Part shown: one piece after another, positions 5,557-56,422 of the stretch | Layout: each line of letters opens with the position of its first letter | Position numbering within the stretch: the stretch's first letter is position 1 | NCBI GenBank assembly: GCA_965224195.1 | Contig: OZ245040.1 | Span: 1,504,001-1,568,000 of the forward strand | DNA: 64,000 nt | Direction of reading: 5' to 3' | DNA from: Nitrosopumilus sp. | GTDB lineage: Archaea > Thermoproteota > Nitrososphaeria > Nitrososphaerales > Nitrosopumilaceae | Notes under the pieces: generated by a model | Seen by the model: only the letters and a program-made list of their open reading frames with translations | Told to the model about the DNA's origin: nothing | Databases searched by the model: none | Made by a program: the position numbers and the translations under genes

Positions 5557-5774
5557 TATTTTTTTATAGTTATCATAATATTGTCAGAATCTTTTATTTT
5601 ATAGTTATCAGAATCTTTTATTTTATAGCTGTCATAATATTGTCAGAATCTTTTATTTTATAGCTGTCATAATATTGTCAGAATCTTTTATTTTATAGCT
5701 GTCATAATATTGTCAGAATCTTTTATTTTATAGCTGTCATAATATTGTCAGAATCTTTTATTTTATAGTTATCA
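5557..5774. repeat. 35-bp tandem repeat (about 6 units, some partial) at 3' end of PKD-like gene
   Basis: ttttattttatagctgtcataatattgtcagaatc at 5616, 5651, 5686, 5721 plus partial or variant units. Confidence 0.95.
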
Positions 5775-7481: not shown

Positions 7482-7829
7482 TCATCCTAGCTTGTCATAT
7501 ATGATTTTTGTAAACTGCCCAACCATTGCAGGGTTTGGGGCCTCGTCATATCTCTTGAGGGCATGCAAAACTCTCTGATTAATTTTGTACAAGAGCACGG
7601 CATTTGCATCAATGACACTGCACGTCTCAGAATCCAAGTCGCCAGGCGGCGTTTTATTCTCAAGATCAATGCGTCTCTTCTCCATGTGAACCTGGTTGTC
7701 AGACTTGCCACAGCTTTGGTCTTTGCACCAGTGATCATTTACTTTGTATATGGCATCACCGGCTCTGATTTGTACGCTGCAGACCTTGCAGGTGCTGTCA
7801 AACCTTGAGGCCATGGATACGGCAGACAT
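7482..7829 (-). CDS. Provirus-like hypothetical protein with Cys motif
   Basis: 115 aa, CKVC...HWCKDQSC; abuts the nuclease gene. Confidence 0.6.
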   Translation of the reverse strand: MSAVSMASRFDSTCKVCSVQIRAGDAIYKVNDHWCKDQSCGKSDNQVHMEKRRIDLENKTPPGDLDSETCSVIDANAVLLYKINQRVLHALKRYDEAPNPAMVGQFTKIIYDKLG

Positions 7830-8528
7830 TTAGTTTATCCTCCTCAAAAACTCTAGATATTTTGTTGGCGAGTTGTCAGTTGATTCAGGCAAATAAAACA
7901 TTTGGATTGTCTCAAGCATCTCATCTGCATAGTCTGCAAACTTTACCTTGTGTATCCTGCACTTTCCGTCCTCACATGACTCTATGATGACGATTTGATT
8001 TGCAACAAAATTTGTCTCCTCATAATGCATAAAGGCATACATTGCAGCCTGCAGATACCACACGTCCCGTCGTTTGCCGTAGCGAGGCTTTCGCGTCGTC
8101 TTAAAATCAATGACGGATGAGACGCCATCATATGCTGCAATGACATCTGCAGTTCCGGCCACTTTCAGGGTGTCAGACTTCATAATTTTTTCCAGTCCCC
8201 GAACATCGGATATTTTATTGAGATGTTCTGAAATCTGTGACACGTGTGCTGATGCAACCAGGCCCAGCTTTGTCACATTTAGTCCTGAAAGTTTTTCATA
8301 GAGAGCCTGATGTACTGCTGTTCCAATTTTTGCCGCATTGTTTCGTCTGTCATTTAATGCTTCTTGCGACAGATTCACATATTGCATCCAGGACTTGTCC
8401 TGCATCGAATCAAGCAGGGTTGTAGCTGATGCATAGATTGAATCATCATGAGAGTAATATCGAAAATCATTCTCATCATGACAAATTATTTTTTCCTCTT
8501 GAATTTGTATTTGATTCATATCTATCAT
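7830..8528 (-). CDS. PD-(D/E)XK exonuclease (viral RecB/YqaJ-like)
   Basis: Y.SATTLL, GTAVH, AGTADVI, VIDFKT, LQAAMYA motifs; no Cas4 C-terminal Cys cluster. Confidence 0.85.
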   Translation of the reverse strand: MIDMNQIQIQEEKIICHDENDFRYYSHDDSIYASATTLLDSMQDKSWMQYVNLSQEALNDRRNNAAKIGTAVHQALYEKLSGLNVTKLGLVASAHVSQISEHLNKISDVRGLEKIMKSDTLKVAGTADVIAAYDGVSSVIDFKTTRKPRYGKRRDVWYLQAAMYAFMHYEETNFVANQIVIIESCEDGKCRIHKVKFADYADEMLETIQMFYLPESTDNSPTKYLEFLRRIN

Positions 8529-8605: not shown

Positions 8606-8749
8606 ATGAGTAAAAAAGTAGATGGCGACTACTACAGGCATGAGTGCAACAGATGTACATTCATTTGGTACAGCTTGAATTCAAACCCAGGCACATGCAA
8701 CAACCAGTACTGCAGATCTCCATACTGGAATAAAAAGAGAGTAAGATAA
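8606..8749 (+). CDS. Small Zn-ribbon protein, virus-like
   Basis: Hand-translated 47 aa MSKKVDGDYYRHECNRCTFIWYSLNSNPGTCNNQYCRSPYWNKKRVR. Confidence 0.7.
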   Translation: MSKKVDGDYYRHECNRCTFIWYSLNSNPGTCNNQYCRSPYWNKKRVR

Positions 8750-8922
8750 AAAAGAAGGCGATGATGAGAGCCGTGACTTTTGATTCTCCTCATTTTAAAA
8801 AATGATCTGAATCATTTCCCGAGCCTTCTTCTTTTTTAACATTCATAAAATCTTATAAATTCTTCTATGAAAGTTCGATTCAAACTGGCTTTCTTTTGCA
8901 AAAGCTCCGTCTTCTATTTTGT

Positions 8923-9110
8923 TTTTTAATGGGGCCTCACCAGGAGGTGAGGAAATTATGAGCATGTTTGTTTGCTTGCTTGCCTGCCCTAGCTTCAATA
9001 TTTTGCTTCAATGGGGGCCGTAACAACAATACGGAATATTTGCATGATTGACCTGCATATGGCGGCATGTTTCAATCTTGCTTTAAACGGCCCGCCTGTC
9101 TACAGCATCA
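8923..9110 (-). CRISPR. Degenerate CRISPR-repeat-like mini-array (type I-G-like hairpins), no cas genes nearby
   Basis: Minus strand: ATTGAAAC-29nt-ATATTCCGTAttgttgtTACGGCCCCCATTGAAGC-aaaat-ATTGAAGC-35nt-ATTTCCTCACCtcctGGTGAGGCCCCATTAAAAA. Confidence 0.55.
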
Positions 9111-9382
9111 TTTCACTTGGGCATAAAACTATCAAATCTGGCAGTTTTCTTAAATTTGCGGGATTAATTTTTCAGGCTTTAAAACTGAAAATGAATTAAT
9201 TGAATTCAATAATCTCTAAATCTTCACTCCAAGATACAATTACTGTTTGGATTTCTTGTCCATCTGTATTTTGAGTGGATTGTGTGATAACTACTGGTGT
9301 CTCATCAGTAAGAGCATGTACTTGATTCATTATAATAAATAAAATTCATACATTATTTAAGACTTGCTCGGTTATTGTGAGA

Positions 9383-10274: not shown

Positions 10275-10536
10275 ATGCAACACTAGCTTGAAATGGGAGC
10301 AAATTGCTCAAAAGGATTCAAGATGCAAGGCAGTGGATGCAAAATGGTTCTGCAAGCTTGTCAAGACCTGAACTGTAAATCTTGTTCTGAATCGTCTTCA
10401 TGCATGTTTGAATTCTTTACACAGGAATTCCAGGATTGCTAATTTGTCATGGATTATTTTGGATAACTTGATTGTCTTTCTCAATAATTATATGAAATTA
10501 GTTTTGGCGGCAATAGGTTTGCAATCACCTTGATTG

Positions 10537-11154
10537 TTATTTTTGGTAGGGTTTAATCCAATCAAACCTTACTGGTCCCTCATTTAAAATACCAGTCATA
10601 AATTTACAGCGTCTACTAAGGTCTGAAAAATATGCACGTGTAGCAGGAGTTATTTCTTTTTGAACAGCAACATCATCATTATCATCTGATGTGTTCAGGT
10701 GTTGAGACTTATCCCCTAAAACATTCTCCCATGTGTTGTAACTGCTATTCAGTTTATCAGCACATTCATCAATGCGTTGGCATATATTTTTGACATATTT
10801 TATCTCATCCAAACTTAATTTTATCAATGATCCGCTGTCTTCAATGGCTTTCCAGAAATTAAATTCCAGCGGTATGTAAAATTTCGCTACTATTTTCTTA
10901 TCCATTTTTTTAGAAACCAATTCCTTTACAAAAGACTGAATATTTTTTTCAGATTCCAAACAAGGTTCTACAAGTGCCAAATGCTTATCCATGATAACAC
11001 AAAGTCGTTTAAAGTCATCTCGCAACAGCTGTTTTATTTTTTTTATCTCTCTTTGGTCCTTTTTACGCTCCCAAAAAATTGAAATAAAAAACCCAAAGCC
11101 AGCTCCAAGTACTGCTCCAATAAATGCAATTCCAAGTGCTTCAAGGGCCGTCAT
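10537..11154 (-). CDS. Membrane-anchored hypothetical protein, paralog of 379..1011
   Basis: 205 aa, 31 substitutions relative to the first copy. Confidence 0.8.
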   Translation of the reverse strand: MTALEALGIAFIGAVLGAGFGFFISIFWERKKDQREIKKIKQLLRDDFKRLCVIMDKHLALVEPCLESEKNIQSFVKELVSKKMDKKIVAKFYIPLEFNFWKAIEDSGSLIKLSLDEIKYVKNICQRIDECADKLNSSYNTWENVLGDKSQHLNTSDDNDDVAVQKEITPATRAYFSDLSRRCKFMTGILNEGPVRFDWIKPYQK

Positions 11155-11222
11155 CTATTGGCGTTTCACCTATATGTCTAATGAGTTTTCTGCATTGCAT
11201 TATCTATAAGAATATTTTTAAA

Positions 11223-11350: not shown

Positions 11351-11684
11351 CTTTAAACAACAAAACTAGGCTATTTTTTTAGTAAAAAATTTTACTCTGT
11401 AATTAAGAATCATCTCTCGTCTTTTCTGAGCATTTTACCAGTAGTGCAGAATGTAATAGAGGAATCATCATTGCTTGGATCATTCTGAGCCAGGGGACAA
11501 GGGAATAGAGAACTGATGCATATAGTAATATAATAACCAATATAATGACCAATCATTAGCCAAACTCATGGGCCGTAATCATATAATTTTGTGTTTGTGT
11601 ATTCATGTTCCACTCCCGATTGCGGCCCCATTGATGCATTAAAAATAAATTAACCTAGCATAAAGTCAACTCTTGATCAAGTGT

Positions 11685-11903
11685 CTATTTGATTCTCTTT
11701 ACGACTTGAACCGTCTGCAGCTGTCTTCTGTTTTTCGTGTTGCGCGGCCTTGTCCTTAGCACAAAATTACAGCATGGACAGTGCTTGCCATTCCAGTACA
11801 TGAAAACCTCGCATATGGAGCACATCTTTTGTCCTTGGATGTAGCGATTAATACCATGAACTCTTTTTGCCTTGTGTCGAGTGCAGGTTCCCTTGCAGGT
11901 CAT
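11685..11903 (-). CDS. Small Cys-rich Zn-finger protein (probable start MTCKGTC)
   Basis: CKGTC...CSICEVF...CPCCNFVLRTRPR; related fragment at about 43096-43232. Confidence 0.75.
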   Translation of the reverse strand: MTCKGTCTRHKAKRVHGINRYIQGQKMCSICEVFMYWNGKHCPCCNFVLRTRPRNTKNRRQLQTVQVVKRIK

Positions 11904-12189
11904 AGTGAAGTTATGCCAGAAAATACAATTTATAAATCTTGGAGTATCATTCATCTGGACTAGATAATTCAATACACTAATGTAATGATTCACTAATGTA
12001 ATGATTCACCAACCTAACGCAACACTAGCTTGAAATGGGGGCAAATTACTCAAAACGATTCAAGATTCCAGTTAAAACAGATGGTTTCATCATATATCCA
12101 CCAACACAAATCATCTTCTGCAAATACATAATCATGTGAATGGTATACTTGCAATATGGTTATTTAACCTTAGCCCCTTATAGTACAAT

Positions 12190-12894: not shown

Positions 12895-13262
12895 TGGAAA
12901 AAAATATCATCTGCCAATAAAGGTATTATCACAAATCTATGTTTGATACCTTAAACTATTCTTAAAGATTATATCAATTGAAATTGAAATAGGTCTTATT
13001 AATTCATTAATTATTGTAATTTACAATGACGACAAACATGACAAAATCACTAGTTATGTTTGCTATGTTACCATTACTTATGGCCAGTTTGGTGGTGGGG
13101 AGTCTACGTATACAATTGGCATAACTAATAATATGCCCAATCTTTTTTTATAAAATATTATTCTATTGTCATTTATGCATAGCCATATTTTATACCAGTG
13201 GAGGATTATTTATTTTTAGTTCAGCTGTTACTAAGAATCGATTCTATCAAGGGATGACACTA

Positions 13263-14328
13263 GATGAGTTGCGCAATTGCAAGCAAAAATCTAACTTTTC
13301 TATCATTTAATTTTTAATTTTATGGAATTGTAATGAATTCTTCTTTCCATTTAATCTTGAAACTGACAGTCCCACAAACAATTTCACTTATCACATCATA
13401 TCTGCATAATTTGTTTCTAAACACATCGCGATTTATCCGAAATTGCCTGACTTGTGCAATGACACGTCCAACTTTTATTCTAATTTTTGACTGCATCCTG
13501 TTCCACTCCTTTTGAGCAACAGTCAATTTTTTTCCTTTCTTTTTCTTGCATGGCAAAACACTTGCCTGTTCTGGAAAGTCTTTTTCCATCCCCAAATATC
13601 CAGGATCATAAGACTGCAGCAACCCTTCAGACAATGTTGGATGCCTTGGTTTGTAAATTCCGTAATCATGATGGCTGCCAGGCGAATGTGCAGATTTGTG
13701 GATTGTTATCCCATCAGGATTTATGGCAATTTGATTTTGTACTGCATGTTTTTTCTTTTTGCCTGAATGGCGTGCCTTTCTTTTCTTTTTGTTTTTTGGT
13801 CTTGGGATGGGCTGTTCTGTGCCATCAGTGATTGCAATTAATTCCGGAAAGAATTCTTGCAATTCCTGCATGCCGTTAATCTTTTTTGAATCTGCATATT
13901 TTTTGGCAGCAATTATAATGGACTGCTTCACTGCAGGCTCCAAACATCTGATGTTTCTCATTACGTTTGGTTTGTCCAAATCAAATGTCATCCCTGGCAT
14001 GTCATATGTTGTGTACATTCTGTAGTACATGAAAAACATTAGAATTCTGCCTTTGAAGGACAAGTCAAACTTGTGTCCTGCACCAATGTCCCTTTCTCTG
14101 TTTTTGGACAGTCCCTTTTGTTCTGCAGTTTTGCAATTTTTCTTTGTTTCTTTGTATGGGGAATCAAACTGTGGAACGGTTAGTCCTGCTATTGGCAGGA
14201 ATTGCTTTGGTTTTTTTGCCAGTTTGTGCAATTAAACATGAATTGAAAATAATTCAGCCTTAGCTTTGGATCTTATGATTAGAAAATGTTGAGATTATGC
14301 TCAAATTGGACTAATTGCACAACTCATC
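13263..14328 (-). mobile_element. IS5-family element with TIRs, flanked by TA
   Basis: ta-GATGAGTTGCGCAATT at left, AATTGCACAACTCATC-ta at right; encloses the transposase. Confidence 0.9.
13320..14231 (-). CDS. IS5-family (DDE_Tnp_4-like) transposase, possibly inactive
   Basis: HTH region, TDGTEQPIPRP, SGKKKKH, GSHHD, YDPGYLG; RIKVGRVIA where a catalytic Glu (RIxVE) is expected. Confidence 0.85.
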   Translation of the reverse strand: MHKLAKKPKQFLPIAGLTVPQFDSPYKETKKNCKTAEQKGLSKNRERDIGAGHKFDLSFKGRILMFFMYYRMYTTYDMPGMTFDLDKPNVMRNIRCLEPAVKQSIIIAAKKYADSKKINGMQELQEFFPELIAITDGTEQPIPRPKNKKKRKARHSGKKKKHAVQNQIAINPDGITIHKSAHSPGSHHDYGIYKPRHPTLSEGLLQSYDPGYLGMEKDFPEQASVLPCKKKKGKKLTVAQKEWNRMQSKIRIKVGRVIAQVRQFRINRDVFRNKLCRYDVISEIVCGTVSFKIKWKEEFITIP

Positions 14329-14774
14329 TATTGTTGATAGTTTACAGTGCAAGTGTAAAAATTAACATCTTCTTTGAATTTGTATTGAATTTCAAAAGAT
14401 ATAGGTAATTCATTGTCTTGTAAGAAAATATCTATGAAAACCTGTTTAATTTGATGAACGTCAAATGGCTTATGAATTATAGGAATGTTCAACAAGTTAA
14501 GGAGAGGAGAATCATATACGTTCAGATCTCCACTAATTATAATAAATTTAGCCTTTGAATCCAGATCCTTAATATTTTCAATAGCATAGTATCCATCATA
14601 TCTAGGCATTTGCAAATCAGACAAAACTAAATCAGGTTTGTGTTTCTTATACAACTCTACTGCATCTTTGCCATCATTACCAGTTGCAAGTATTTCTACA
14701 CCAACTACATGCAATAAGTCTGAAAATACATCTACAATATCCTGATCATCATCGATCAGTATACAGTTAACCAT
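14328..14774 (-). CDS. Response regulator receiver protein, 3' end cut by the IS
   Basis: ILIDDD...DLQMP..DG...HKP; stop codon overlaps the IS end. Confidence 0.85.
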   Translation of the reverse strand: MVNCILIDDDQDIVDVFSDLLHVVGVEILATGNDGKDAVELYKKHKPDLVLSDLQMPRYDGYYAIENIKDLDSKAKFIIISGDLNVYDSPLLNLLNIPIIHKPFDVHQIKQVFIDIFLQDNELPISFEIQYKFKEDVNFYTCTVNYQQ

Positions 14775-47612: not shown

Positions 47613-48737
47613 ACCCTAACTGAACCACTCTGTCACCCGAATTTACCATCAGTTGAAAATCCGGCCTAGTTTTGACCAAAGTATCAGATAACATAACATT
47701 CAAAAAATGCGGGATGTCATTTGCGCGACATGTCTGCGCGTACTGTATGCTGCAAATAGCTCATTGCCTTTGCTTCCTCCAGTTTCATTGCATCAAGTAT
47801 CTCCGGGTTTTGCAGCTTGCCTGACGGCGAGGGCACAATCCATATGGTTGCAGGCTCTGCCAGATCAGGGGACGGCCTGTCATATATGCTGCCATACATA
47901 TCCTTTGCATGCTGCAATGCGCGGTCCCTCTCATGGGATATCATGCCGTCATAGTTTGAGTTTGCCCTCCTTGATCTCAATTTCAGCTCTAAAAGCTGGT
48001 GTATGCTCATCTAAACTCATGTGTGGTTTTATGTAATTGTGGCATAGTTTGATTCCTGTAATTGCTGGTGAATCATCTTTTTTCAAAACCTCGTTCTATA
48101 TCTAATTCATGTTGTGCGAATGCCCTGGTTGCATTATCATCCCAATCTACTTTGTTCATACTATATGTTGATTTTTAGGTTAATTATATTATTTGCGATC
48201 ATTTTACTAGAGAATAAAAAATATTTCACAATATTGGGAATTGATAGTAGTTTAAGGTTCAACTAATTTTTGAGATGAAATTTGGATTATGTAGTTTGCG
48301 ATCAAAATTATAAAGTTGATTATTGGAATTTAGTTTTAGATCGTCACATTTAATATCCAATTGGTAATATTTTCCATTTAGTTGGATCAGAATACAGGAA
48401 ATAACAGCATTCAAATTTATCGATATAAAAAAGAGATCCAGTTATCATATGATATCATTGAAGAGAAAATCAGCAGTGAAACAGAACACAAATATTCTTT
48501 AAAAATAAAAAAAGATGAAAAAACTAAGAGATATTCTTCTACTTTTGAGTTTAAAAAAAGAACTTCAATTAAAGAGAATGAAGACTTGTTATGGTATGGC
48601 GTTGATGCACAAAGAGAGACAGAGTCAGAAGTTCTAAGTTTACATCATAATGTGTGTTTTAGTAAAAAAGGATTTTTAATAATTACTGGAATGACTAATA
48701 GAAATACATTGTTAAAATATCTTGTAGATTTACTACA
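47613..48737. repeat. Second copy of 1121..2245; truncates the ORF at 48382
   Basis: Identity ends at ttactaca|ggggtgttctgcaatcc. Confidence 0.95.
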
Positions 48738-55666: not shown

Positions 55667-56422
55667 TTAATCATTTTTTACTTCAATTTTATTTTTATTG
55701 AATTTGTTGTAACCCTCTTTGTTGTAGCCCTCTTTGTTGTAGCCTAGGTGATCATATCCAAGTCTATCATACCCGTCTTTGTTGTGCCCATTGCTATCAT
55801 ACCCATCTAAATCATACCCGTCTTTGTTGTATCCATTTACATCATATCCATTACTATCATATCCATTTTTATCATATCCGTCTTTGTTAAACCCGTCTTT
55901 GTTAAACCCGTCTTTGTTGTATCCCTTTAGATCATACCCGTCTTTGTTAAACCCATTTTTGTTGTATCCATCTTTGTTGTATCCTTTTTTGTTGTACCCA
56001 TTTTTGTTGTATCCATCTTTGTTGTATCCTTTTTTGTTGTACCCGTCTTTATCAAAATTTATTTTTGTATCAATGTGAATCCCATCAAGAGAAAAACCAC
56101 GATTATCGTACCCGTCTTTGTTGTATCCCTTGTTGTTGTATCCATTTTTGTTGTATCCGTCTTTGTCGTAACCCTTGTAATTGTATCCATCTTCGTCGTA
56201 TCCATCTTTGTATCCCTTTTTGTCATATCCATTTTTGTTGTAACCCTTTTTGTCATATCCATTTTTGTTGTAACCCTTTTTGTCATATCTCTTGTTGTTG
56301 TATCCATCTTTATCAAATCCATTTTTGTTGTAACCCTTTTTGTCATATCCATCTTTATCATACCCATCCAAGTCATACCCAAACTTGTCAAATGTTTTAC
56401 TAAATTTATCAAACAAACCCAT
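55667..56422 (-). CDS. G(Y/F)(D/N)KX pentapeptide-repeat protein
   Basis: About 40 five-residue repeats (15-bp period) in two blocks around RGFSLDGIHIDTKINF. Confidence 0.85.
   Translation of the reverse strand: MGLFDKFSKTFDKFGYDLDGYDKDGYDKKGYNKNGFDKDGYNNKRYDKKGYNKNGYDKKGYNKNGYDKKGYKDGYDEDGYNYKGYDKDGYNKNGYNNKGYNKDGYDNRGFSLDGIHIDTKINFDKDGYNKKGYNKDGYNKNGYNKKGYNKDGYNKNGFNKDGYDLKGYNKDGFNKDGFNKDGYDKNGYDSNGYDVNGYNKDGYDLDGYDSNGHNKDGYDRLGYDHLGYNKEGYNKEGYNKFNKNKIEVKND

Follow-up and report, generated by a model that had tools for sequence, protein, structure and literature searches.

A cas-less chimeric module of type I-G and type I-B CRISPR repeats in a variable island of Nitrosopumilus sp.

Introduction

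Mobile DNA is known to exploit or disarm CRISPR-Cas systems (short palindromic repeats, clustered and regularly interspaced, and the associated cas genes) by means of cas-less mini-arrays and repeat mimics. In this work, we focus on a short module of repeats carried on the minus strand of a 64,000-nucleotide (nt) stretch of the genome of Nitrosopumilus sp. (GenBank assembly GCA_965224195.1, contig OZ245040.1, positions 1,504,001 to 1,568,000), the whole of which we call the window. An earlier description, hereafter the original prediction, had seen there a provirus-borne array mimicking CRISPR RNA (crRNA), with type I-G-like hairpins and doubled 5' handles. Read from its sequence, the module is securely recognized as a cas-less chimeric mini-CRISPR array built from type I-G (and I-B) arrays. 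We will describe its layout, its relation to the CRISPR systems of the host and its other copies in the genome, and we will then weigh what its RNA might do. Coordinates are window positions unless they are prefixed C1, the genome contig on which the window is C1:1504001-1568000.

Layout of the module

The module occupies 9095..8856 on the minus strand and is longer than first described: the part from 9095 to 8923 stands as it was, and the module runs on to 8856 into a type I-B-like repeat. The letters and positions originally quoted are exact, on the minus strand. Its elements come in the order degenerate repeat, 40 nt, R1, 48 nt, R2, 37 nt and degenerate type I-B repeat, so that repeats of two CRISPR subtypes share one orientation and are spaced at spacer-like distances.

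The first element, psi-R0 (9095..9080 (-)), has the letters ..GGCGGGCCGTTTAAAGC (with the end ..GGGCCGTTTAAAGC) and is a degenerate 3' part of a type I-G repeat. The conservation among copies A, B and C (see below) starts here, and a TATA-like word, TTTAAA, lies inside it at 9087..9082. The TTTAAG box that the original prediction had placed before the module lies at 9154..9149, in a region that is not common to the other copies. Interval 1 (9079..9040 (-)) is made of 40 nt, namely aag, the octamer ATTGAAAC (9076..9069) and 29 nt (9068..9040). The same octamer is the handle of the third host array, which, for such a short AT-rich word, is a lead only.

R1 (9039..9005 (-), ATATTCCGTAttgttgtTACGGCCCCCATTGAAGC) is type I-G-like, with an eroded hairpin of 5 base pairs (bp) and a host-type 3' end CCCCCATTGAAGC bearing one extra C; it can be divided into ATATTCCGTA-ttgttgt-TACGG-CCCCC-ATTGAAGC. 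The Rfam family CRISPR-DR16 weakly matches 9005-9032 (15.1 bits, E-value 7.6), and the Rfam scan gave nothing at gathering level, CRISPR-DR16 at these 15.1 bits and the C/D-box families at 16-25 bits all being sub-threshold. Interval 2 (9004..8957 (-), 48 nt) reads AAAAT, ATTGAAGC, TAGGGCA, a low-complexity (GCAA/ACAA) run and TGCTCATA. The AAAAT and the handle cover 9004..8992, and the remaining 35 nt (8991..8957) are partly of low complexity, as had been noted for the second putative guide.

R2 (8956..8921 (-)), whose quoted letters ATTTCCTCACCtcctGGTGAGGCCCCATTAAAAA correspond to 8956..8923, is of the I-G type, with a 7-bp stem CCTCACC/GGTGAGG, a 4-nt loop and the 3' end ATTAAAAAAC. Its flanks, ATTTCC and GGCCCCATT, are host-type, and the whole can be parsed as ATTTCC-TCACC..GGTGA-GG-CCCC-ATTAAAAA. 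Its end ATTAAAAAAC is also the end of two solitary I-B-like repeats found elsewhere; here again, the word is short and AT-rich and is a lead only. Interval 3 (8920..8886 (-)) is A-rich with a weak GCTTT..AAAGC hairpin, and it measures 37 nt in the window copy and 35 nt in the three others after the 8-nt ATTAAAAC. The last element, psi-R(I-B) (8885..8856 (-), GTTTGAATCGAACTTTCATAG..), is a degenerate copy of the 30-nt type I-B repeat of the host, to which it is identical at 19 of its first 21 nt, while the remainder has diverged. We recognized it via a weak match in a genus relative (G177), which proved to be that relative's own I-B array. In copy C, the I-B-like repeat aligns over 24/24 nt with the host I-B repeat, with 2 mismatches.

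The module is not coding sequence. Indeed, insertions and deletions (indels) of 1, 2, 3 and 4 nt between the copies break the small open reading frames (ORFs) over it, and Pfam gave no family for any of the four small ORFs over or beside it (0/4). The conserved protein-coding region that the original prediction had named as a refutation did not come to light.

The CRISPR systems of the host

The 2.07-Mb genome encodes archaeal AmoA (386 bits), so that the host is an ammonia-oxidising archaeon. Starting from a 15-nt word of R1, we reached a type I-G array (C1:707205-713740) in which the 36-nt repeat ATTTCCGTAACCAAAATGTTACGGCCCCATTGAAGC occurs 90 times, separated by spacers of 34-42 nt. This repeat and the module repeat share the terminal CCCCATTGAAGC. 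In a blastn-short search of the own genome, the repeat-like matches outside this array at E<=0.04 were copies of the module only: copy D is identical to the host repeat at 32/35 nt (E 7e-7), copies B and C share 19-20 nt exactly, and the window copy falls below these matches because of its one extra C. Since the module matches the host repeat, a chance resemblance is excluded.

The flanks of the I-G array (C1:713.9-723 kb) carry cas2, a cas4g/cas1g fusion (714.7 bits), cas3g, csb2 and csb1, and beside the array are also found a 238-amino acid (aa) ORF resembling the C-terminal half of Csb2 (Cas6-like) and a Cas3-extension protein. These genes mark the system as type I-G, in agreement with the original prediction. 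A second I-G operon, at C1:1228137-1236367, encodes cas3g, cas8g1/csx17 (579.8 bits), csb1 and csb2, so that both genes which had been proposed as a check of the host, csb2 and cas8g, are present. This operon has no adjoining cas1, cas2, cas4 or array, and it ends in an N-terminal fragment of Csb2 and an IS5 remnant. The two full Csb2 paralogues are only 19% identical to each other, and the 238-aa fragment shares 40% identity with the C-domain found in the Csb2 of the second locus. The two Csb2 fragments, which lie 510 kb apart (the N-fragment at the second operon, the C-fragment near cas4g/cas1g), suggest that a csb2 gene was split by an old rearrangement. Csb2 genes are present in 13/150 other genomes of the genus. 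The diversity of Csb2 in this host, with two such distant paralogues and the 238-aa ORF, leaves room for hairpin preferences that may differ from one protein to the other.

The host also carries a type I-B array of about 69 repeats of GTTTGAATCGAACTATTATAGGATTGAAAT (C1:942019-946558), with I-B-like genes and spacers of 32-39 nt, and a third array of 132 repeats of the 37-nt unit GTCAAAATGACAAATCCATCATAACAAGGATTGAAAC, ending AAGGATTGAAAC, at C1:1457181-1466783, that is 37 kb upstream of the window. The genes of the latter are type I-B-like (cas7/csh2-like, cas5b, cas3, cas1 and cas4).

A few further observations on these arrays and their repeats can be mentioned on their own account. Spacer 10 of the I-G array shares 21/22 nt with a spacer of the third array. 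At C1:943549-943990, a pair of consecutive spacers of the type I-B array is found again four units away, and this indicates that a segment was duplicated within the array. A solitary sequence at C1:1261569-1261605 (-) is identical to the repeat of the third array at 29/37 nt (E 0.002). Downstream of the nuclease cassette of copy B, type I-B-like repeats stand singly at two places, L026:9250-9420 and L026:10470-10640 (GTTTGAATCGAAC..GGATTAAAAAAT/C), each within a repeated element of about 190 nt and bracketed by the perfect 10-nt inverted repeat GTGGATGCAC/GTGCATCCAC. Lastly, three words resembling TTGCGGCCCCATTGATGC (window 11620-11637 (+), C1:1503737 and C1:1694167) depart from the end of the I-G repeat by 2-4 mismatches; each has ATTAAAAATAAA behind it and belongs to a repeated segment (window 11352-12066).

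Four copies of the module and their nuclease cassette

The module is present four times in the genome: copy A is that of the window (C1:1512860-1513095), and copies B, C and D lie at C1:793503-793851, C1:790370-790603 and C1:1626099-1626330. From its sequence, copy D looks like the least altered of them. It is composed of a clear repeat truncated in its loop (AAAAGTTACGGTCCCATTGAAGG), a 38-nt interval, R1, a 36-nt interval starting AAAATATTGAAGC, R2, 35 nt and the I-B-like repeat. Its spacings of 38, 36 and 35 nt are inside the ranges of the host (34-42 nt for I-G and 32-39 nt for I-B) and are thus canonical, but its repeats are unlike each other: a partial R0, R1, R2 with another stem and the I-B-like end. 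Because these distances match host spacer lengths, the "doubled handle" falls inside an interval of ordinary length. This weakens the idea that doubled 5' handles were a design, as copy D lacks the first and has the second inside its 36-nt interval.

Interval 2 has grown to 48-52 nt in the other copies (48 nt in A, 52 nt in B and C) through changes in the GCAA/ACAA run; its ends are nearly invariant across copies, and the length differences are confined to its middle. Interval 1 is the same in A, B and C, and copy D has instead an unrelated interval of 38 nt. The R1 loop of copy D, GAAAAA, is also found in the I-G arrays of G443 and G291, two relatives within the genus, the host loop being CAAAAT. 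Because R1 of copy D fits the repeat of these relatives better than that of the host, an import from a related strain is indicated: judging from these letters, the module was probably acquired in this way, and the array was then probably copied along with the nuclease cassette. In sequencing data, contigs of two DNA runs of one study (X1 and X2) show paralogous variants, and contigs of a third run with another organism label (X3) cover the nuclease part; the uncovered 8862-9119 carries no information.

Copies A, B and D are each followed by the same cassette of about 1.7 kb, in which a PD-(D/E)XK exonuclease gene, in the same orientation as the module, is followed by a gene for a 115-aa Cys-rich protein. 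In the window, the exonuclease lies at 7830..8528 (-) (232 aa; phrog_298, 4.7e-33; PF12705, 1e-4), and the Cys-rich protein, at the end of the shared cassette, lies at 7482..7829 (-) (phrog_1581, 6.3e-5). The exonuclease also matches phrog_1706, "CRISPR/Cas system associated" (2.9e-7), and it is weakly Cas4-type-like. It has seven full or partial copies in the genome and its close relatives were found in this genome only, while homologues at about 30-38% identity, mostly in one copy, occur in 149/400 genomes of the family, a tally that includes an unpublished genome (G260). Copy C, 3 kb before copy B, is without the cassette, and the gene directly downstream of it encodes an 844-aa beta-propeller protein. 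A zinc-ribbon ORF of 47 aa (CxxC..CxxxxC, no Pfam family), convergent with the module, is found at 8606..8749 (+) and is not present at copy D; the exonuclease and zinc-ribbon genes originally named as neighbours both adjoin the module in the window.

Between the module and the zinc-ribbon ORF, at 8745..8840, the inverted repeat TAAAAAAGAAGGC / GCCTTCTTCTTTTTTA carries T runs on both strands and is a possible two-way terminator. It is 12-nt perfect, it encloses AUGAUGA and CUGA words, and families of C/D-box small nucleolar RNAs weakly match the plus strand here (16-22 bits, all sub-threshold); it may be a terminator, a small RNA or neither.

The fixed place and orientation of the module upstream of the nuclease gene in three of the four copies, together with the position of copy C immediately before the beta-propeller gene, would suit a function unrelated to CRISPR. 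The module would then be an untranslated leader, a processing site or a small RNA of the nuclease cassette, descended from CRISPR or, at the extreme, resembling it by chance. In A and B, however, the convergent zinc-ribbon ORF and the T-rich inverted repeat come in between, which speaks against such a role, and the match to the host repeat rules out its extreme form. We hold this to be the least probable of the explanations that we have weighed.

Folding and fit to type I-G processing

In a bacterial type I-G system, the cut made by Csb2 falls 4 nt behind the 7-bp stem of a 36-nt repeat and leaves an 8-nt handle, and Csb2 remains attached to the hairpin by its Cas6-like C-domain; the reported protospacer adjacent motif (PAM) is TTN (PMC9638904). 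The host I-G repeat and R2 each consist of 4 nt, a 7-bp stem, 4 nt and 8 nt, and this geometry is satisfied, in folds predicted from sequence, by the host repeat, by R1 of copy D and by R2. The window R1 departs from it, with 5 bp and a 5-nt linker.

The predicted stabilities follow the same lines. R2 is the most stable element, at -12.4 kcal/mol (z-score -4.17, with 0/200 shuffles as good), where the host repeat reaches -8.2 kcal/mol and the near-canonical R1 of copy D (TTTTCCGTAACGAAAAAGTTACGGTCCCATTGAAGC) reaches -9.9 kcal/mol. With respect to the host stem, three base pairs of R2 differ, both sides having changed each time, and the flanks are intact. The window R1 folds at -4.9 kcal/mol (z -0.66, 49/200 shuffles as good), and that of copy B is weaker still (z +0.19). 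The claim that the stems differ yet stay paired holds for R2 and its perfect 7 bp, the window R1 keeping only 5 bp. The whole module gives z -1.77 on the minus strand and z 0.00 on the plus strand, and shuffled sequences fold as well as the hairpins proposed within intervals 2 and 3 (interval 3, z -0.08).

Targets of the intervals

If the module were a working mini-CRISPR array of a mobile element, comparable to those of the Sulfolobales portogloboviruses, intervals 1 and 2 would be true guides turning the I-G effector of the host against competing elements. The array-like layout with its one to three intervals of spacer length, the turnover-like difference of interval 1 between D and A-C, and the closeness of the repeats to those of the host or its relatives all fit this explanation. 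The intervals, however, have no match elsewhere in the own genome (none beyond 14 nt for interval 1). With up to 3 mismatches, interval 1 of A-C has none in 150 genomes of the genus, and that of D has none in 88. In IMG/VR, searched with one exact 20-mer, interval 1 has no match either. In addition, interval 2 is of low complexity and variable length, there is no host-like leader, and no hallmark of a mobile element was found among the ORFs scanned alongside. We consider a working array quite improbable.

The nuclease protein, the doubled handle and R2 are likewise unmatched in IMG/VR, where the matches to the end of the I-G repeat are two GC-rich contigs that are evidently unrelated. The 21-nt handle-AAAAT-handle word matched one metagenome contig, in unrelated sequence, and two genome contigs (Saprospiraceae and Shewanella) that were set aside by their record titles alone. 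The pattern GGTGAGGYCCCATT was found in 0/400 genomes of the family. In the other direction, the spacers extracted from the host arrays (89+67+131 = 287) have no match outside the arrays of their own genome longer than 18 nt when exact, or than 24 nt when 2 mismatches are allowed, so that the islands are not self-targeted by them.

Conservation among copies

Copies A and D have diverged to different degrees along their length. In the nuclease gene, 58/231 third codon positions differ (25%), and in the module the differences amount to 7/35 in interval 3, 10/30 in the I-B-like repeat and 10/32 in R1. They fall to 1/20 in the handle-AAAAT-handle-TAGRGCA block, and none of the 41 aligned nt of the GCTCATA-R2 block differs between A and D, nor between B and D. 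The invariance of these blocks could be what is expected under selection on R2 and the handle region, a recent gene conversion being a fair alternative.

A possible function of the module RNA

The explanation that we favour, tentatively and short of an even chance, is that the module still gives rise to a processed, non-targeting crRNA-like RNA, composed of a handle, interval 2 and the R2 hairpin, that would occupy type I-G proteins. Transcription of the minus strand would start at a promoter that coincides with psi-R0 or lies upstream of it, guessed from the TTTAAA word, and would end at the T-rich inverted repeat near 8745-8840. The Csb2 of the host would then bind the R2 hairpin (and that of R1 where it is intact), cutting 4 nt behind the stem, and the released RNA would carry the 8-nt handle ATTGAAGC, interval 2 and the R2 hairpin. 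Because no target was found and because the middle of interval 2 is length-variable and of low complexity, this RNA would be a non-cleaving occupant of the I-G effector proteins, a decoy or a regulator, rather than an immune guide.

Several observations weigh against this explanation. R1 is eroded in copies A, B and C, R0 is truncated or degenerate, and interval 2 ranges from 36 to 52 nt. Indels affect the linkers (copy A has one more C behind R1, and copy C has GCC behind the R2 stem) and, in a 4-nt linker, would shift the predicted cut. Among the four copies, compensatory change was seen at 0/35 predicted pairs. No leader like those of the three host arrays precedes any copy (chance matches of 9-15 nt only), and the module was found in 0/200 genomes of the family (by BLAST, with chance-level matches) and in 0/150 genomes of the genus. 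The four cas regions contain no convincing PAM-proximal seed, only scattered AT-rich 8-12-mers of which the longest lie within genes, and within 2 kb of the modules there is one seed match only (copy A), with TAA in place of TTN; neither the cas promoters, which the original prediction had named as possible targets of the guides, nor the nearby promoters yielded a target. Moreover, A and D differ by only 3.2% in the 115-aa gene and by 15% in the nuclease gene. The cassette is therefore a mosaic, and a recent gene conversion could account for the invariant blocks.

We hold a dead relic to be nearly as likely as an RNA bound by Csb2. The module would be the trailer-end fragment of a longer imported I-G array that was deprived of its leader and of most of its repeats, joined to a piece of I-B type and copied with the cassette through recombination in a highly repetitive genome, with no functional RNA. 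The degeneracy of R0, the erosion of R1 in three of the four copies, the linker indels, the slippage in interval 2, and the failure to find a leader, a target or relatives agree with it, as do the gene conversion indicated by the mosaic identity levels and a genome rich in mosaic repeats, with about 24 copies of one insertion sequence (IS). The contrast between D and A-C, in which the leader end differs and the trailer end is common, is also normal in real arrays. A relic accounts less well for the perfect 7-bp stem, the 4-nt linker (in three of the four copies) and the host-type flanks that R2 retains, or for an R2 block with 0/41 differences beside 25% at neighbouring third codon positions. 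Random joining, moreover, would not give spacer-length distances between unlike repeats.

A bolder version of the favoured crRNA-like RNA is a purpose-built mimic of several systems, in which one transcript would present hairpins or handles for the two I-G Csb2 proteins and for a Cas6 of type I-B. It could provide a "private" RNA of the R2 type for the second I-G effector (Cas3g-Cas8g-Csb1-Csb2), which has no array, or else blunt several of the four type I effectors of the host. We regard it as rather unlikely.

Genomic setting

The provirus that the original prediction had assumed, with an archaeal virus as the source of the module, finds no support in the surroundings: the ORFs scanned around the four copies gave no family of capsid, terminase, portal, integrase or conjugation proteins, many of these ORFs being without any family. 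The setting is an IS-rich variable and defence island beside a restriction-modification system. The first 16 kb of the window contain the IS (13260-14330, DDE_Tnp_4 transposase, about 24 genome copies at 96-98% identity), a PKD-domain protein, a response regulator and ORFs without families, and from about 16 kb onward the window is of a housekeeping nature (EF-1 alpha, fructose-bisphosphatase and DNA ligase). The DNA just upstream of the window encodes a restriction-modification enzyme of the MmeI/Eco57I type, DprA and an S-layer-like protein. The first of these is read as a 500-aa and a 530-aa ORF that overlap (L065:13539-16606) and is possibly frameshifted or split. Copies B and C are surrounded by an IS240-type transposase, an MT-A70 methylase and a solute-binding protein.

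Segments recur across the genome, which has the structure of a mosaic: in the window, 119-1064 recurs at 10277-11222 (95.8%) and 1121-2245 at 47613-48737 (99.8%). Six tandem copies of a 35-nt unit lie at 5562-5768, upstream of the PKD-domain gene, and long 15/45-nt periodic repeats are found at 55700-56400 inside a 251-aa ORF.

Significance and comparison with known systems

The module would provide a concrete RNA with which the little-studied type I-G nuclease Csb2 can be tested. As it joins two I-G variants and I-B in one unit, in a mesophilic host with four sets of type I effectors and about 290 spacers, a function would show cross-talk between co-resident systems. Were the mimic of several systems to prove true, it would amount to a chimeric RNA anti-CRISPR or regulator without precedent in type I-G or in ammonia-oxidising archaea. 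Were it only a relic, it would still record the horizontal traffic and recombination of CRISPR arrays among related strains. In the texts compared, the known mini-arrays and repeat mimics come from bacteria and from Sulfolobales viruses, with a single repeat type per unit.

The mini-arrays of the Sulfolobales viruses SPV1 and SPV2 have, in the text consulted, promoter-bearing host-like leaders, repeats matching those of the host, a surrounding viral genome and spacers against sister viruses (Medvedeva et al. 2019, PMC6858448). Like these arrays as described there, the module is cas-less, it has a few intervals of spacer length and host-like repeats, and it lies outside the cas locus. Unlike them, its repeats are mutually unlike, and no host-like leader, viral genes or targets were found.

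The Racr RNA anti-CRISPRs are described in the texts compared as solitary repeat units (Camara-Wilpert et al. 2023, PMC10651486; PMC11656645). A Racr has no spacer, possesses its own promoter, resides on a virus or plasmid and draws proteins of the Cas6 or Cas7 type into aberrant complexes, so lowering interference. By analogy, the module is a repeat mimic on accessory DNA that could occupy proteins of the Cas6 or Cas7 type without guiding cleavage. It differs in having several repeats with gaps of spacer length and a promoter guessed from TTTAAA, and type I-G is not named in those Racr texts. CreR, CreA and the viral Cracr arrays consist, in the description consulted, of a degenerate repeat, a pseudo-spacer and a degenerate repeat, sometimes stacked (Liu et al., bioRxiv 10.1101/2024.10.29.618823). 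This is also the form of R1-interval 2-R2, with degenerate repeats around a pseudo-spacer, and the conserved PAM-proximal part with a freer remainder recalls interval 2. Unlike what is described for them, the module gave no such match in the cas regions or nearby promoters searched, and it mixes repeats of the I-G and I-B types.

Closer to the host, integrated conjugative elements of Thaumarchaeota carry stand-alone type I-B arrays of 69 and 96 spacers, which the text consulted takes as used in trans (Krupovic et al. 2019, PMC6563490). These arrays, as presented there, belong to the same phylum, are cas-less and have repeats resembling a host array. The module, by contrast with that description, is a chimeric I-G fragment of 2-3 units in an island where no conjugation genes were seen. 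CRISPR-associated transposons have guide RNAs with atypical "private" repeats, in which a diverged stem can restrict their use to one effector variant. Unlike in these transposons, there is no transposase-Cascade here, and the array-less I-G operon retains cas3g.

The literature that we searched names no hybrid or chimeric CRISPR array, which is not proof of its absence from the literature. With respect to the published mini-arrays, Racrs, Cracr and thaumarchaeal arrays, as these texts describe them, the module is new in that a single unit gathers repeats unlike each other, in its I-G type and in the lineage of its host.

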